Under the pieces are notes generated by a model, which saw only the letters and a list, made by a program, of their open reading frames with translations, was not told the DNA's origin and did not search any database. A DNA stretch of 32,536 nucleotides from Actinomycetota bacterium (GTDB taxonomy: Bacteria > Actinomycetota > Acidimicrobiia > Acidimicrobiales > Ilumatobacteraceae), in assembly GCA_046093905.1 (NCBI GenBank), contig JBJTGN010000056.1, positions 1-32,536 of the forward strand, read 5' to 3'. A program made the position numbers and the translations under genes. Position 1 is the stretch's first letter, and the number at the start of each line of letters is the position of its first letter. Shown in pieces: positions 3,764 through 24,937 of the stretch.

Positions 3764-4749
3764 GACACCACTTCCCAGGAGCGTTTGGGTGGGACGCGCA
3801 CAACACCCTCCCAGGTGAACAAGGAGTCGATGACACTCTGAGTGCTCATTGCGGGTTCCCAACCGAGTGCCTGGCGACAGCGAGAACTCGTCCCGCGACG
3901 GCCGTGATGCAGCACCTCCATCACATGTTCGGGCACGGGTGCTCCGAAGAGATGGGCGACGCGGCGGGTCACGGACCATTCGGGCCCGATCAGCGGCAGC
4001 GGAATGTGTCGGCTGCTGCGAGCGACGGAAAAGCCGCTGATCTCTCCTGGAGCGACGATATTGATCGGAGCTCCGATGGTCCGCTGAGCAGCAAGGATGA
4101 AAGCGCGTGCTGCATCGTCCTCGTGGAGGACGCTGAACATCGGCGAGCGCACGAGGTTGAACGGCACGAAAGGCAGACGCAGTAGACGGCCGAGTGGGCT
4201 CGGGATGTGCGGGCCGACGACTGGTGCAAGGCGAAGCGGAGTCACATCGACGGTCGACGATGTGAACATGGTGCGGGCGTACTCCTCCAGTTCGAGGAGC
4301 ATTCGCCCGTATTGGGAAGTCGGATTCGGCTTGGCGTCGTCGGATGGAATGTCAACGGAGTCCCGGCCTCGGCCGTACACCTCGAGTCCCGATCGGAGAA
4401 CGACATGCTCCAGAGTCGAACTCCAACGAGCAGCTTCGAAGAGAGAATGTGCTGCTTGGCGGGTGTACGTCTCGGCGTGACTCGGCTTGGCACGAGCATC
4501 TGGTTCCCAGACTGCGAGGTGGATCAGTACGTGAGGATCGGTGGCCTCGACGATCTCGGCCATGCGTGTTGCATCGGATGCATCGACGAGGTGGAAGGTG
4601 CTCCGGTTCAGGCGACGACGGGGAGGATCTGCATCGAGACCCGTAATCGATTCCACCCAGGGTTCGCGCTCCAACCTGGCGGCAACGAGTGAACCGAGTT
4701 GGCCACCCATGCCCGAGATCAAGACCCGGCGCCCGGTTGCTGTGGACAT
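3760..4749 (-). CDS. NAD-dependent epimerase/dehydratase-family protein (extended SDR fold, atypical active site)
   Basis: VLISGMGGQLGSLVA is the Rossmann GxxGxxG. The position of the SDR YxxxK motif reads YGRML (4297-4311), so the catalytic Lys is replaced by Leu. Confidence 0.8.
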   Translation of the reverse strand: MSTATGRRVLISGMGGQLGSLVAARLEREPWVESITGLDADPPRRRLNRSTFHLVDASDATRMAEIVEATDPHVLIHLAVWEPDARAKPSHAETYTRQAAHSLFEAARWSSTLEHVVLRSGLEVYGRGRDSVDIPSDDAKPNPTSQYGRMLLELEEYARTMFTSSTVDVTPLRLAPVVGPHIPSPLGRLLRLPFVPFNLVRSPMFSVLHEDDAARAFILAAQRTIGAPINIVAPGEISGFSVARSSRHIPLPLIGPEWSVTRRVAHLFGAPVPEHVMEVLHHGRRGTSSRCRQALGWEPAMSTQSVIDSLFTWEGVVRVPPKRSWEVVS

Positions 4750-4757
4750 CGCTGAAG

Positions 4758-5273
4758 TCAGCGTAGTAGGTGGGCGCGCAGGATCAATTCTCGTGCAGAT
4801 GGGTCGAGTTGGTGTCCGGCGAGCCTTTCTCCGATCGCAATGGCTTCCTTCGGGTCCTCGACGAGCCCGTACCAGCGAACGAATGCGCCCATCGCACCCA
4901 TGATGCGGTCACCGACTTCTTCACCGTGAACGACGACCTTGACATTGTTCGTCAGCAAGTTCTTCAATTCGTTGAACAAGCCGCGGGCCCAATCGTCGAC
5001 ATTGTCGGCATTGAACGGACGGTGTTGGTACGTCACGCCCAATTCGTCGTAATTGTGCAGATTGTGGGGTGCGGGGATGATGCTGATCAGGCAACCGAAA
5101 TGGTTCTCCCTGATCCAGATGATCTCCTCTTGTCGACGCACGCGCCGGTGATTGTCCCCGTAGCCGCCCGGTCGTTCACACACCGCCAACCGATCTTTGA
5201 GAATCCATGTGAAGTTCCGGGGCGTGATCCCTAGAGCCCATTTTCCTCGTAACTTCGGTGGCACAATCGACAC
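4758..5273 (-). CDS. Protein-tyrosine/dual-specificity phosphatase-fold protein lacking the catalytic Cys (pseudophosphatase-like)
   Basis: GTG start at 5273, 1 nt after the tilS stop. The layout is DSP-like: LAVCERPGG ... GVTYQHRPFNAD ... VVVHGEEVGDRIMG. The P-loop reads H-G-x5-R (4905-4928, CAC GGT GAA GAA GTC GGT GAC CGC) instead of H-C-x5-R. Confidence 0.6.
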   Translation of the reverse strand: MSIVPPKLRGKWALGITPRNFTWILKDRLAVCERPGGYGDNHRRVRRQEEIIWIRENHFGCLISIIPAPHNLHNYDELGVTYQHRPFNADNVDDWARGLFNELKNLLTNNVKVVVHGEEVGDRIMGAMGAFVRWYGLVEDPKEAIAIGERLAGHQLDPSARELILRAHLLR

Positions 5274-5274
5274 C

Positions 5275-6108
5275 TTAGTCGTGTATCTCGGGTGGGGTCA
5301 TCGACATCCGTTGATTCGTTCGACTGATCCGGATCCCGCCGGGCATCTCACACGCAATTGCGTCACCGCGGGCGACTGCAAGAACTCGTTCGACTGTTGC
5401 CGAATCGGGAGGGTGGACATCTTCGAGCCAGCGGCGCACCGCTCGACGGGCGACTGCAGTAGGTGCTCGCGCAAGCGCACGGGCATCGGTCGGATCGATC
5501 TGCGCACTGAGGTCGTCGAGAACATCAGCCTCGTCGGCGAGCAGGTCAGCTTGGCGAACAAGAATGGGAACGAGGTCGCGTCCGGCTGCATCGTTCATCG
5601 ATGGAAGGAGATCGAGTCGAATGCGATTGCGCAGGAGAGAGCGATCGGCATTGGTCGGGTCTTCGAACGGCGTCCATCCGAGTCGAGAGCAGACCTCGAT
5701 CGTCTCGGAGCGCCGGATGTCGAGCAGGGGATGGAGAATCCGACCGGTCGGCCCCCCCAGACGGCGCATTCCAGCGAGTCCATCGAGCCCGGCTCCACGC
5801 AGGAGATTGATGATCACGGTTTCGGCACGGTCATCTGCGGTGTGACCCGTGCTCACATCCTCGGGTAGGACGGCGTAGCGGGCCTCGCGCGCACGCGCTT
5901 CGAGATTGGGTCCGGGTTCGACGAGGACACGGTGGGAGACGAACGCAGCCCCCACGTCATCGGCCGCACGTGCAACAGCATCGGCTTCTTGATGTGACCC
6001 GGGTCGTAAGCCGTGATCGACGTGGATGGCAGTGACATCGAGACGGGCTGCACGGGCGAGTGCGAGCAGTGCAAGTGAGTCGGCGCCTCCTGAGACAGCG
6101 CAGGACAA
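5275..6108 (-). CDS. tilS: tRNA(Ile)-lysidine synthase TilS (5' end uncertain)
   Basis: PP-loop SGGADSLALL. The ORF-track start at 6108 is TTG, only 5 codons before the PP-loop. The same frame stays open upstream to the TGA at 6205-6207 and encodes a TilS-like N-terminus, but contains no ATG, GTG, TTG or CTG. Confidence 0.85.
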   Translation of the reverse strand: MSCAVSGGADSLALLALARAARLDVTAIHVDHGLRPGSHQEADAVARAADDVGAAFVSHRVLVEPGPNLEARAREARYAVLPEDVSTGHTADDRAETVIINLLRGAGLDGLAGMRRLGGPTGRILHPLLDIRRSETIEVCSRLGWTPFEDPTNADRSLLRNRIRLDLLPSMNDAAGRDLVPILVRQADLLADEADVLDDLSAQIDPTDARALARAPTAVARRAVRRWLEDVHPPDSATVERVLAVARGDAIACEMPGGIRISRTNQRMSMTPPEIHD

Positions 6109-21973: not shown

Positions 21974-22899
21974 GGACGCAAACCCGTCACTCCGTATCGT
22001 TCGTGGGTCACAGGGTCGACTGCGGCTACATGGTCGACGACCCGCCGGCCGTCTGCCGACCTTTCCATGTGCACGGCGAGGCCGATCGCGGAATCGACGA
22101 GAGAACGAGCGTCTTCGATCGTCCAGCCGACTGCTGCTGAGAGGATCAGGACATCGAGGCGATGCAGCCCGTCGAGTGCGGAATTGGCATGAAGTGTGGC
22201 CAAGCAGCGACGGTGCCCCGTGCTCATTGCTTGAACCAGTGTCAACGCTTCTCGACCTCGTACTTCGCCGACGATGAGGCGATCCGGGCGCAAGCGAAGC
22301 GCTGTTCGGAGCAGATCATCGATGCCGATCGCCCCTCGTCCTTCGTGTGTTGGATTCCGCGATTCCAGTCGAACGACATTCGGGTGTTCGATGACGAGTT
22401 CATACGTGTCCTCGATGACGATGAGTCGTTCACTCGGCGACGACATCGAGGCGAGAGATCCGAGAAGGGCACTCTTGCCCGAACCGGTTGCGCCGGTGAT
22501 CAAGATGTTGGCGGTCGAAGTTCGAATCAACTCCTCGAGACACACCCAACTTCGTTCGGAGTCGCTCGGGGCGAAATCTTCGAGGCTGAACGGGGTCTGT
22601 CGGAAGATCCGAAATGCTGCACACGTTCCACCGACAGCCACTGGTTCGATCACAGCGCACACCCGCGTTCCATCGGGCAGACGAGCATCGACCATGGGAG
22701 CCAACCGGTCGAGCCTTCTCCCGAGCGGAGCGAGAAGTCGTTGGAGTGTCACGTCGATCTCGCCAGGTCGAAGATCGGGAGAACGTTCGAGACGACCACG
22801 ACGTTCGACCCAGACCTCGGTTTCGTCGTTGACGAGGACGTCGGTCACTGCAGGATCTTCCCAATGACGACGGAGTTCGAATGGCAGACAGTCCAGCAT
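21970..22899 (-). CDS. tadA: Tad pilus secretion ATPase (CpaF/TadA, T2SS/T4SS ATPase family), short form
   Basis: Walker A ILITGATGSGKSALLGSL, Walker B region RLIVIEDTYEL, and PDRLIVGEVRGREA. At 309 aa it lacks the long N-terminal domain. ATG 22899 forms a TGATG overlap with the tadZ stop. Confidence 0.9.
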   Translation of the reverse strand: MLDCLPFELRRHWEDPAVTDVLVNDETEVWVERRGRLERSPDLRPGEIDVTLQRLLAPLGRRLDRLAPMVDARLPDGTRVCAVIEPVAVGGTCAAFRIFRQTPFSLEDFAPSDSERSWVCLEELIRTSTANILITGATGSGKSALLGSLASMSSPSERLIVIEDTYELVIEHPNVVRLESRNPTHEGRGAIGIDDLLRTALRLRPDRLIVGEVRGREALTLVQAMSTGHRRCLATLHANSALDGLHRLDVLILSAAVGWTIEDARSLVDSAIGLAVHMERSADGRRVVDHVAAVDPVTHERYGVTGLRP

Positions 22900-23591
22900 C
22901 AGCCATCACGCCATCGACTGACGACCGGTGTGAGAGCCCGAATCAGCTCTGTCGAGGGACGCGAAGTGATGATTCCTGCATCGACACGGCGGGCGATGTC
23001 TGCAGAGATGTCGAGCGTCGCTGCGATCGGCAATCCGAGGACTCGTGCAACGTCGGCTTGTCTGAGTGCGCGATCGGGTTCGGTCACGATGATGACGGCA
23101 TCCGATGAGTGATCGATGAGTCGCGCACGCCGCAATGCGAGGTAGCAAGGGCGGACGACGATGTAGCGATGGTCAGCGACGGATTCCAGTTCGCGTGGAA
23201 CAGGTCCTCGCCCAGCATCGACGATGATCGTGCAGCAGCTGGTCGACAAGTTGGTGAGTTCGGCCGCAAGACGCGACCATGCTCCAGAACGCGACTCGGG
23301 AAGGGTTGCTCTACCTCGGGGGAGAACTCCGAGTTCGGTCTCGCGGTCGACGATCAGTGTTCGGATGTCGAACGATGTCGGGTCGGAAATCCATTCGGCT
23401 ATTCCGACGAGAGGGTCTTCGATGCCGAGAATTGCCGGGACGTCGCCGGCGAGGTCGACGATGACAGTTCGTGCATCGTTGTTGCGATCGGTCGCCGAAC
23501 GTGACTCGACGATGGCAAGGCCTGTTGCGACGACAGACGTTCCCGAACCGCCCTTGGGAGACCAGCACAGCACCAACACGACACCCTCCAC
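22899..23591 (-). CDS. tadZ: TadZ/CpaE-like ParA/MinD-family ATPase (pilus assembly localisation protein)
   Basis: Deviant Walker A in LCWSPKGGSGTSVVATGLA. At 230 aa it is the ATPase domain only. GTG start at 23591. Confidence 0.75.
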   Translation of the reverse strand: MEGVVLVLCWSPKGGSGTSVVATGLAIVESRSATDRNNDARTVIVDLAGDVPAILGIEDPLVGIAEWISDPTSFDIRTLIVDRETELGVLPRGRATLPESRSGAWSRLAAELTNLSTSCCTIIVDAGRGPVPRELESVADHRYIVVRPCYLALRRARLIDHSSDAVIIVTEPDRALRQADVARVLGLPIAATLDISADIARRVDAGIITSRPSTELIRALTPVVSRWRDG

Positions 23592-23645
23592 ATCGAAACC
23601 CGATGGACTTCATGTGGGGAAGGAGACCGCAATTGCGGTGAGAGT

Positions 23646-23720
23646 CAGTCGGAGAGGATCTTGTTGATGGCGACAGCAATGAGTCCGATCAGCACGATCG
23701 CCATGAGAAGTCGACGCATG
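23646..23720 (-). CDS. Candidate 24-aa hydrophobic mini-protein (MRRLLMAIVLIGLIAVAINKILSD)
   Basis: Too short for the ORF track. It runs from ATG 23720 to TGA 23646, 54 nt upstream of the tadZ start. The peptide is one TM-length helix with basic N-terminal and acidic C-terminal ends. Third-codon positions are mostly G/C, as in neighbouring genes. Only a weak GGTGA lies upstream. Confidence 0.25.
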
Positions 23721-23784
23721 GGTTCACCATAGTGCTCATTGGTGACTCGCCGACGTGTATCGAATCGTCGCTACTGTGGTCGCC

Positions 23785-23877
23785 GGAGGTGTCCGAGTAC
23801 CTGGTGGACTCCGCCGCCTTCAAAGCGGTTGGGACGAGCGATCCTCGTCCGGCGGGTTCGATTCCCGTCCACCTCCG
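23785..23877 (+). tRNA. selC: tRNA-Sec (selenocysteine tRNA, anticodon TCA), 93 nt, CCA not encoded
   Basis: Folded by eye. The acceptor GGAGGTG(T)/(C)CACCTCC has 7 bp plus a U:C eighth position. The D stem GAGT(A)CC/GGACTC has 6 bp with one bulge and a 4-nt loop TGGT. The anticodon stem is GCCGC/GCGGT with loop CT-TCA-AA (anticodon 23820-23822). The variable arm has a 7-bp stem GGACGAG/CTCGTCC with a 5-nt loop. The T arm is GCGGG-TTCGATT-CCCGT and the discriminator is G. The arrangement parallels E. coli selC (8/5 stack, long extra arm). Confidence 0.8.
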
Positions 23878-23894
23878 CGAAGCGAGGTGACGGG
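23864..23894. terminator. Hairpin 1 (selC 3' acceptor/T-stem strand paired with downstream flank); candidate factor-independent, bidirectional terminator
   Basis: CCCGTC-C-ACCTC-C-GC GAA GC-GAGGT-GACGGG gives 13 bp with two single-C bulges and a GAA loop. No U-tract on either strand. It lies between convergent selC and the sigma gene. Confidence 0.35.
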
Positions 23895-23920
23895 CAATCG
23901 GGAGGAGTGCAACGACGGAT

Positions 23921-23951
23921 CCCGTCCACCTCCGCGAAGCGAGGTGACGGG
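23921..23951. terminator. Hairpin 2 (identical copy), 44 nt downstream of the sigma-factor stop on the minus strand
   Basis: Same 31-nt hairpin sequence as 23864-23894. It is the first structure met by transcripts leaving the sigma gene (stop at 23996-23998). Confidence 0.4.
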
Positions 23952-23995
23952 ACGCCGTCGCTCCACGACGGTCCCGATGACCATCCCCAGCGAGG

Positions 23996-24937
23996 TCAGA
24001 CGGCCAGGAGGTCGCGTGCGCCAGTGTCGCTCGACGGATGACGCAACTTGCTCATTGCACGAGCCTCGATCTGGCGGATGCGCTCACGGGTGAGGTTGAA
24101 GTGCTCTCCGACCTCTTCGAGTGTCCGCGGCTCGCCACGGTCGAGGCCGAAGCGCAACTTGAGAATCTCGCGCTCGCGTTCGTCGAGAGGTGCCAGCAGA
24201 CGCTGGATCTCCTCGGGCAGCAGAGCTGTGGCTGCCACTTCGAACGGGCTTTCGGCAGACCGGTCTTCGACGACGTCGCCGAGTTCGGCATCTCCGTCTT
24301 CGCGCAACGGCTCGCTGAGCGACAGGGGCTCGGCTGCGAAGCGCAGAGCTTCCGTCACCTTGTCCTCGGGCATCTCGACTTCTTCGGCCAGTTCGCGCAG
24401 CGTGGGCTGTCGGCCGAACTTGAGCTCGAGGCGGGTACGAGCCTTTTGCAGACGTGCCAGCGTGTCACCGGCATGGACGGGAAGGCGAATGGTTCGTCCC
24501 GTGTTGGCGATACCGCGGGTGATCGCCTGGCGAATCCACCAGGTGGCGTAGGTGGAGAACTTGAAGCCCTTGCGCCAGTCGAACTTCTCGACGGCGTGCA
24601 TCAGACCGAGGTTGCCCTCCTGAATGAGGTCGAGAAGGGGAAGTCCTGAGGCCTGATACTTCTTGGCAATCGACACCACGAGGCGCAGGTTCGATTGGAC
24701 GAATGCCCTCTCTGCGATCTCGCCCTCTTTGACGAGGTTGCGCAACTCTCGCTTGCGGGCCGGAGTCAGGCTCTTGTAGTCGGCCGCCTGGCTGGCTTCG
24801 ACAGCGGCTTTTCCGGCTTCGATCTGCTTGGCCAGACGAACTTCGTCGTCCTTGGTGAGGAGTGTGTACTGACCGATGTCGGACAGATACAGACGGACCA
24901 GGTCTTCTTCATCACGGTCGACGCGATCCTTGGCCAC
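23996..24937 (-). CDS. RNA polymerase sigma-70 family factor, RpoD-like without a long region 1.1 (group-2 / SigB-like)
   Basis: 313 aa. Region 1.2 is DLVRLYLSDIGQYTLLTKDDEVRLAKQIEAG. Region 2 is LRLVVSIAKKYQASGLPLLDLIQEGNLGLMHAVEKFDWRKGFKFSTYATWWIRQAI. Region 4.2 is LEEVGEHFNLTRERIRQIEARAMSKLRHP. GTG start at 24937 with GTGAGG 7 nt upstream. Confidence 0.9.
   Translation of the reverse strand: MAKDRVDRDEEDLVRLYLSDIGQYTLLTKDDEVRLAKQIEAGKAAVEASQAADYKSLTPARKRELRNLVKEGEIAERAFVQSNLRLVVSIAKKYQASGLPLLDLIQEGNLGLMHAVEKFDWRKGFKFSTYATWWIRQAITRGIANTGRTIRLPVHAGDTLARLQKARTRLELKFGRQPTLRELAEEVEMPEDKVTEALRFAAEPLSLSEPLREDGDAELGDVVEDRSAESPFEVAATALLPEEIQRLLAPLDEREREILKLRFGLDRGEPRTLEEVGEHFNLTRERIRQIEARAMSKLRHPSSDTGARDLLAV

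Follow-up and report, generated by a model that had tools for sequence, protein, structure and literature searches.

Tandem copies of the tRNA-Sec 3′ end between selC and a convergent sigma-factor gene in Ilumatobacteraceae: a candidate U-tract-less terminator array with a predicted RNA module

Intrinsic terminators consisting of a hairpin only, without a U-tract (referred to as "I-shaped"), have been reported in Actinobacteria, and bidirectional terminators are known to lie between convergent genes. Minihelices or domains that resemble part of a tRNA are represented by the tRNA-like domain (TLD) of tmRNA, the tRNA-like structures (TLS) of viruses, and mascRNA. Repeated units that start within a tRNA gene are found in the trailer of tyrT/tyrV of E. 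coli K-12, where three units of 178 base pairs (bp) occur, the first overlapping the last 19 nucleotides (nt) of the tRNA, and where the small RNA (sRNA) rttR and the open reading frame (ORF) tpr are annotated. According to the passage of PMC3318445 that cites Bosl and Kersten (1991), this unit yields a processed small RNA, RttR. Genomic islands in tRNA genes, on the other hand, are defined by the tRNA gene (tDNA) and a displaced fragment of it in the same orientation, with at least 2 kb between them and an integrase (PMC4383910). Here, we describe a 32-nt duplication at the 3′ end of selC, the gene for the selenocysteine tRNA (tRNA-Sec), in a 32,536-nt stretch of Ilumatobacteraceae DNA (contig JBJTGN010000056.1, hereafter the window). 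Comparison with related loci makes it rather likely that this duplication is one period of a selC-anchored tandem array which forms a structured, U-tract-less terminator/insulator and carries a constrained RNA module.

The duplicated 32-mer (TCCCGTCCACCTCCGCGAAGCGAGGTGACGGG) was found exactly twice, at 23863-23894 and 23920-23951 of the plus strand, as a first-pass annotation of this DNA had proposed. The two copies start 57 nt apart and are separated by a gap of 25 nt; no third copy was present in the window within three mismatches, and 0 matches are expected from 100 shuffles. selC lies on the plus strand at 23785-23877, reading through the discriminator G, with the anticodon TCA and without an encoded CCA; it was placed at 23785-23878 by ARAGORN and at 23785-23876 by Rfam (RF01852, 66.7 bits against a gathering score of 47). 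It is from this placement that the repeat is seen to begin inside the tRNA and to run 17 nt beyond the discriminator, and its content agrees with what the annotation had listed, namely the last T-loop base, the 3′ strands of the T-stem and the acceptor stem, the discriminator, and 17 nt of flank. Copy 1 thus comprises the 16-nt tRNA 3′ end (23863-23878) and the 3′ arm of a hairpin, S(a)1, this arm being an inverted copy of the tRNA 3′ end. It is followed by a conserved linker, M5′ (AATCGGGAGGAGTGCAACGACGGA, 23896-23919), and by copy 2, which is composed of a second 16-mer (23920-23935) and the segment S(a)2. The description as an exact tandem duplication holds for the 32-mer but not for the period, since only 32 of its 57 nt are repeated and the two spacers differ, which is also why Tandem Repeats Finder (TRF) called no tandem repeat in the window.

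To place this duplication in context, related loci (labelled L001 and so on) were collected by four routes. These were contigs coding for an identical sigma protein (L001-L006), whose DNA is about 80-88% identical; a search for the 16-nt tRNA end followed by NNNGCG in one genome per species, which returned at least 80 loci; a metagenome scan for the junction of GAYGGR with the 16-mer, which returned 16 contigs; and loci reached through homologues of the adjoining MinD/ParA-like gene, picked regardless of repeats. About half of the 80 loci listed from the genome scan are selC genes of many Actinomycetota, the remainder being chance matches in coding sequence. The host is not an enterobacterium, and the related contigs, labelled Ilumatobacteraceae or Acidimicrobiia, come from lakes, rivers, and estuaries.

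A selC gene convergent with the sigma gene at a distance of about 20-45 nt is the usual layout in Acidimicrobiales. Within one clade of freshwater and estuarine Ilumatobacteraceae, this gap is filled by one to six head-to-tail units of 27-87 nt each. The unit consists of TCCCGTCCACCTCCGC, which is the last 16 nt of tRNA-Sec, a variable segment S, and a linker AATCGGGAGGAGCGnAGCGACGG(A/G) with a length of 24-25 nt (AATCGGGAGGAGCGnAGCGACGGA). At least three forms of S occur: form (a), the type of the window, reads GAA(T)GCGGAGGT... and pairs with the 16-mer; form (b), CAACGCCGNAGGCGTTG plus a tail, is a free-standing hairpin; and form (c) is a longer variant seen in L112 and L124. Two to four copies of the 16-mer stand directly behind selC in at least six genome loci and in 16 metagenome contigs, as well as in the window, L003, and L127, and the 25-nt distance between copies in the window falls among the 11-71 nt measured in about 25 related arrays. 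The convergent stop codon marks the end of the array in every case but L115, where a start codon takes its place. A duplicate of this kind is absent from four other tRNA genes of these lineages.

The relatives also reveal how the units come and go. Whole units, spacer included, are repeated head to tail in L040, L051, L110, L119, and L128, and perfectly so in the first four of these. Two near-identical contigs differ in the number of 16-mers, L118 having two and L119 three, while L001 equals the window minus exactly one 57-nt period. Mosaic arrays are represented by L116, with the order b-a-b, and L110, with the order b-b-a; in-register hybrids of copies are carried by L003 and L002, and L141 is counted among the hybrids too, its single copy being fused to the stop codon of the next gene. 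The second copy has decayed in L139 and L140, and L128 contains 3.4 copies of a 51-nt derivative unit with 96% identity (TRF period 51). Head-to-tail units whose copy number varies among relatives, as in a minisatellite, are therefore found across this set, and the gain and loss of units is, as read from the alignments, a matter of tandem-repeat dynamics by slippage or unequal crossing-over.

Two further features of the window find their counterparts in these loci. The spacer is a type I hairpin (CCGTCG-CTCCA-CGACGG, 23955-23971, plus strand) homologous to CCGTCCTTCCACGACGG in L001, L002, L128, and L139, and behind it lies a third, decayed copy (TCCCGATGACCATCCCCAGCGAGG, 23972-23995, plus strand) that aligns with the decayed copy of L001 and L002. 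The latter has its complement in S(a)1 together with the beginning of the linker, and makes up the outer arm of the long hairpin described below. The third partial start suspected earlier is hence real (CGACGG followed by TCCCGAT, about 23966-23978), being homologous to the decayed copy in relatives. The stop codon of the sigma-70 family gene (23996-24937, minus strand; 313 aa, with regions 1.2, 2, 3, and 4 assigned by Pfam) abuts the array, and the convergent arrangement of this gene with selC was likewise confirmed.

Some other views of the unit were tried and rejected. Coding units do not fit lengths of 56-59 and 71-74 nt, which keep no reading frame and are not multiples of 3. The motif GGGAGGAG resembles a Shine-Dalgarno sequence, but no start codon lies at a usable distance for a ribosome-binding site. 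A clustered regularly interspaced short palindromic repeat (CRISPR) array was dismissed on two grounds: units and lineages share homologous "spacers", and the window has no cas genes. Finally, the unit was set against 57 nt of the tRNA from the anticodon loop onwards in a by-eye ungapped comparison, in which only the terminal 16 nt and a short AAGCG matched.

Identity comparison indicates that part of the array is conserved almost as strongly as the tRNA itself. Over the 16 lineages, mean pairwise identity reaches 88.5% for the linker and 93% for tRNA-Sec, compared with 58% for the S segment and 57% for the 40 nt upstream of selC. The sigma protein is 89-100% identical across the clade, and the fourfold-degenerate sites of its gene are 40-64% identical between lineages, close to saturation. 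Linker variants track the sigma phylogeny, and vertical descent rather than recent spread would therefore account for the conservation. Among loci found without requiring a second copy, secondary 16-mers are perfect in eight of nine, and the ninth (L040, the sole variant in those loci) has a single C-to-T change giving a G.U pair; variant secondary 16-mers with compensating linker changes were absent from the unbiased protein-anchored loci. The exact linker motif did not occur outside selC arrays within the 0.92 Mb of sequence compared.

Alignment predicts that the linker and the second 16-mer (23896-23935, plus strand) together form a small three-way junction of 33 nt, tRNA-like in its layout. 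Briefly, helix I pairs 23901-23905 with 23929-23933 (GGAGG/CCUCC), the GGAGGAG of the linker resembling the GGAGGUG at the 5′ end of the tRNA; helix II is a mini-hairpin of 2 bp (23907-23908 with 23912-23913) capped by a GNA triloop, which is GCA in the window; and helix III pairs 23914-23918 with 23922-23926 (GACGG/CCGUC) around the loop AUC. A discriminator G and, in most lineages, CCA stand behind the predicted junction. Across 11 distinct modules, 99.2% of cells are paired, versus 41-63% for slid partners. In helix II, both bases of each pair are changed (GU..AC in the window, AC..GU in L003, and CU..AG in L106), the N of the GNA loop takes all four bases while its G and A are fixed, and in L056 a 6-bp hairpin replaces the mini-hairpin. 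Helix III shows two changes, both giving G.U on the selC-sense strand, and helix I one A.C; overall, G.U versus A.C pairs favour the selC-sense strand by 3:1, a number too small to settle the strand. Covariation is thus limited to the 2-bp helix II, and pairing of the acceptor/T-stem kind is possible and 99% kept. RNAalifold applied to eight type-b units independently returned hairpin b, with one compensatory and one wobble change, together with the basal and apical stems. Taken together, the linker and the following 16-mer are probably under structural constraint as a compact acceptor/T-arm-like junction in selC-sense RNA. Covariance models for tRNA (E up to 10) and ARAGORN returned the genuine tRNA-Sec only and not the module, and in Rfam, searched at the gathering score and with E up to 10, no known RNA family covers the repeats.

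The second element of the array is its hairpins. Each 32-mer copy forms the 13-bp hairpin that the annotation had predicted, with two bulged C; copy 1 alone gives −19.0 kcal/mol (z −3.4). Around copy 2, folding extends the hairpin to about 20 bp over 48 nt (CGACGG ... CCGTCG, 23913-23960, plus strand), with −30.6 kcal/mol as RNA (z −4.9) and −19.6 kcal/mol as DNA (z −5.1). A long imperfect palindrome (23879-23990) has its centre in the loop of copy 2 and is a candidate bidirectional terminator/insulator: as minus-strand RNA from about 10 nt past the stop codon of the sigma gene, it forms a single long hairpin, again imperfect, of −67.3 kcal/mol (z −4.1), and the fold of the plus strand mirrors it. 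GC-rich hairpins of −19 to −67 kcal/mol (z −3.4 to −4.9) stand at the end of a transcription unit, as would be expected of an intrinsic terminator. The putative promoter of selC is marked by a −10-like hexamer, TACTGT (23772-23777, plus strand), 7 nt before the mature 5′ end, and the form TAC(C/T)(C/G)T is held 7-9 nt upstream of selC in all 16 lineages despite the low identity of only 57% in the surrounding 40 nt; a consensus scan of the window found no full sigma-70 promoter. Given this hexamer and the lack of promoter-like sequence inside the array, transcription would reach the latter only from selC, as part of its trailer, or from the opposite direction, within the 3′ end of the mRNA of the sigma or the beta-lactamase-like gene. 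It is plausible that such U-tract-less hairpins serve as candidate terminators between convergent genes, a role that fits the anatomy of the locus.

From these data the following explanation can be proposed. An array anchored on the selC 3′ end would have been inherited vertically in the freshwater/estuarine Ilumatobacteraceae clade, its units being gained, lost, and recombined in register via slipped-strand mispairing or unequal crossing-over, as the comparison of relatives suggests, while the 16-mers would stay identical to the functional tRNA end. As the array fills the whole gap from selC to the convergent stop codon, it lies in the 3′ trailer of selC and in the 3′ untranslated region (UTR) of the sigma (or beta-lactamase-like) mRNA. 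The very stable U-tract-less hairpins would act there as a bidirectional terminator/insulator, and the linker with the following 16-mer would supply a constrained junction, for which a processing signal, a stabiliser, and a tRNA mimic are the candidate roles.

Several observations weigh against this explanation. Neither a U-tract nor a T-run accompanies the hairpins, a consensus terminator scan of both strands came out empty, and the first hairpin of the window type must displace the acceptor stem of the tRNA and therefore may terminate poorly. Five related loci (L131-L135) have no array. The linker module is missing in about half of the lineages sampled without bias (L001, L002, L128, L139, L140, and L141) and is therefore dispensable, though conserved where present; moreover, the metagenome scan demanded the linker/16-mer junction and so overstates the frequency of the module. 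The junction fold is no stabler than shuffles (z +0.13 and −0.85), helix I keeps a conserved A.A mismatch, helices I and III show no covariation because their 3′ strands never vary, and the junction model was derived from the same sequences that were used to score its pairing.

A more specific proposal would make the junction a product in its own right. Each module of linker and 16-mer would be excised from the selC trailer by cleavage of the RNase P/RNase Z type, receive CCA, and from then on serve as a regulator or decoy for factors recognising the acceptor/T-helix of tRNA-Sec, or would serve as punctuation in the decay of the trailer. The conserved 5′ segments GGAGG and GACGG do find their partners, in the proper order, on a single unbroken 3′ strand of tRNA origin that leads into a discriminator G and a mostly encoded CCA, and a linker nearly as conserved as the tRNA, together with the near-invariance of secondary 16-mers in the unbiased sample (eight of nine perfect), speaks for such an RNA. 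Both the GNA loops and the two helix III wobbles point to the selC-sense strand, and in type-b arrays the upstream linker is the sole GGAGG partner for the secondary CCUCC once the tRNA has folded. However, the module escapes tRNA covariance models and ARAGORN, its T-like loop is one of 3 nt instead of 7, helix I contains the A.A mismatch, the fold energy equals that of shuffles, and in the window the competing copy-2 hairpin is about 18 kcal/mol stabler than the junction; in addition, the module has been lost in many lineages and has no sel genes nearby. On balance we regard this proposal as unlikely. Its strongest form, in which the 33-nt junction would define a new class of tRNA-Sec-derived small RNA, released in one to three copies from the selC trailer and acting on the selenocysteine pathway or on tRNA processing, for instance as an enzyme decoy, appears doubtful. 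At the other extreme, the array could be a functionless minisatellite in which DNA hairpins provoke replication slippage and neutral debris is kept uniform by gene conversion with the tRNA end. The quick turnover of units, the decayed copies, the total loss of the array in some lineages, and the separate 51-nt expansion in L128 would all follow from this, the hairpins are very stable as DNA too, and assemblies often break inside selC. It is nevertheless hard to reconcile with a linker that has no template in the tRNA gene and yet is 88.5% conserved where neutral sites are saturated, that shows compensatory substitutions, and that is conserved equally well in arrays with a single linker, and it is accordingly judged improbable.

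The first-pass annotation had itself suggested an attachment (att) scar or a site primed for tandem integration, and this was not supported by the comparison. Under that explanation, an integrase-borne island entered selC and was later lost, leaving attL/attR cores 25 nt apart, or else the copies serve as spare attB sites for tandem integration. A duplicated 3′ tDNA fragment that keeps the orientation of the gene is indeed the signature of tRNA-targeted islands, and here its beginning at the T-loop/T-stem boundary suits an att subsite at the T/acceptor junction (PMC4383910), a match that is compatible but not diagnostic. Gene content just beyond the array varies as well, with no extra gene, a PF00144 beta-lactamase-like gene, or AA_synth plus a dehydrogenase, and in L072, from another Acidimicrobiia family, a defence-type gene adjoins selC. 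On the other side, an integrase or recombinase is absent from the window (Pfam over about 30 window ORFs, in keeping with the annotation) and no integrase stands beside selC at the related arrays examined. In about 45 related selC loci, copies were confined to selC; all 16 metagenome junction matches, and every hairpin-flanked genome match among the 80 loci listed, are at selC itself, and secondary copies all lie 27-87 nt behind the previous copy, directly downstream of selC. The copies are 11-71 nt apart where islands require at least 2 kb, and it is whole units including spacers that are tandem, with boundaries conserved across lineages whose synonymous sites are saturated. The related loci compared show no occupied/empty polymorphism, and the variable genes beyond the array are not flanked by repeat copies. 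A search of IMG/VR for attP gave 22 matches to the 16-nt core, all chance occurrences in coding sequence and none in a tRNA or hairpin context. An att scar is therefore very improbable as an account of the present structure, which needs none. Since the shape of the fragment fits the T/acceptor-junction subsite, an ancient att origin of the first duplication stays conceivable, and the founding event may have been of that kind.

The region between the array and the sigma gene deserves a separate description. A 380-aa gene of the PF00144 beta-lactamase family occupies it in L001-L005 (6940-8130 in L001), L141, and many metagenome contigs, and is absent from the window (23995-23999), L128, L139, and L140. 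The slot holds an AA_synth gene (PF06684) and a dehydrogenase-like gene in L115, both in the direction of selC. It looks like a small variable gene slot without an integrase; a cassette or integron-like status of the beta-lactamase-like gene was rejected, there being no repeat copy on its far side. Two loci from Acidimicrobiia families other than that of the window are of a different kind: in L104 (about 4540-5400), a fragment of the sigma 3′ end next to selC is followed by lower-GC, foreign-looking DNA and then by an intact sigma gene, and in L072 (1200-2350) a gene with a GMT-wHTH domain, of the type found in defence islands, directly follows selC. Integration beside selC may thus have taken place elsewhere in Acidimicrobiia.

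Five independent assemblies (L126, L129, L130, L136, and L137) end inside selC just before the array, and in L087 and L042 a run of N joins sequence within it. Short-read assembly appears to be interrupted by the repeats or by strain variation behind selC. Polymorphism within populations of the window's own lineage was sought by two exact-protein look-ups, which were empty, and the one matching contig (L126) is among those ending inside selC. Additional tandem repeats were observed in L121: one unit, of about 32 nt (CATCGATACCGTGAGAYCGCGGGTATCGATT), recurs some 80 nt upstream of selC, where the repeats span the −10-like box, and another, about 38 nt long (CAGCGAGGGGGACGACGTATCCCGGCTATGTCCAA), recurs in the space from the array to the stop codon of the sigma gene.

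The remainder of the window is ordinary chromosome, with topA, tmk, holB, an MMPL transporter, a Tad pilus operon, the sigma-70 family gene, and further housekeeping genes. The tRNA-Sec gene keeps a conserved spot between the Tad operon and the sigma-factor gene across Acidimicrobiales, and none of selA, selB, selD, or selenoprotein genes is near it within 1-32536 of the window. The gene adjoining selC (22899-23579, minus strand) has no Pfam match; some sources name the homologues MinD-like ATPase or BcsQ, with PF01656 or PF06564 in a few, and it is probably a TadZ/CpaE-type ATPase of the adjoining Tad pilus operon. Between the two, and divergent from selC, is an ORF for a hydrophobic peptide of 24 aa (MRRLLMAIVLIGLIAVAINKILSD, 23645-23719, minus strand) without Pfam annotation, whose position and hydrophobic character are kept in all related loci. 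Selenocysteine machinery in Acidimicrobiia has been documented by a preprint (10.64898/2026.04.03.716425), and no specific description of selC-linked repeats in Actinobacteria was found in the literature.

The locus bears on how tRNA-associated repeats are read. A duplicated tRNA 3′ end beside a tRNA gene is by itself no evidence of past integration, and a minisatellite anchored on a tRNA can be mistaken for att sites by island-finding programs as well as by human readers. For these organisms, there is also the practical consequence that assemblies tend to break at selC, apparently because of the array. More broadly, the locus would illustrate how the trailer of a tRNA can develop in nature into a structured element that varies in copy number and lies between two convergent genes. 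Should the module prove to be a processed RNA, these freshwater Acidimicrobiia, which are abundant and difficult to culture, would supply one of the rare regulatory or decoy RNAs that bacteria derive from a tRNA, here linked to the decoding of selenocysteine; should the array only terminate transcription, it would add a comparative, well-documented example from Actinomycetota to the bidirectional terminators without a U-tract.

Compared with the systems introduced above, the array shares with attL/attR, in the sense of the Islander definition, a direct repeat of a 3′ tRNA fragment in the orientation of the gene, whose start is compatible with, though not diagnostic of, the subsite at the T/acceptor junction (PMC4383910). 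It differs in having no island, integrase, occupied/empty polymorphism, or attP, and in having a spacer that is itself repeated and conserved. Like I-shaped terminators, it presents long GC-rich hairpins without a U-run between convergent genes, about 10 nt past the stop codon on the sigma strand; in contrast to them, these candidate terminators are built from copies of the tRNA's own 3′ end, vary in number, and are accompanied by a conserved non-hairpin linker. The predicted module recalls tRNA-like domains in that its acceptor-like and T-like stems share a continuous 3′ strand leading into a discriminator and often CCA, whereas its loop of 3 nt lacks a T-loop motif, its stems have 5 bp, and it is not recognised by tRNA models. 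By analogy of arrangement, the closest documented parallel is the set of trailer repeats of E. coli tyrT/tyrV, although no sequence homology is expected or seen and the present array stands behind tRNA-Sec in Acidimicrobiia. At both loci, tandem units lie directly downstream of a tRNA gene, each starting with 3′ nucleotides of the tRNA (19 nt in E. coli and 16 nt here), and the repeats fall, presumably so in our case, in the trailer of the primary tRNA transcript. The units described here are nonetheless shorter (27-87 nt versus 178 bp), almost wholly self-complementary, and non-coding, and the array they form abuts a convergent gene and contains a separately conserved linker with structural covariation.

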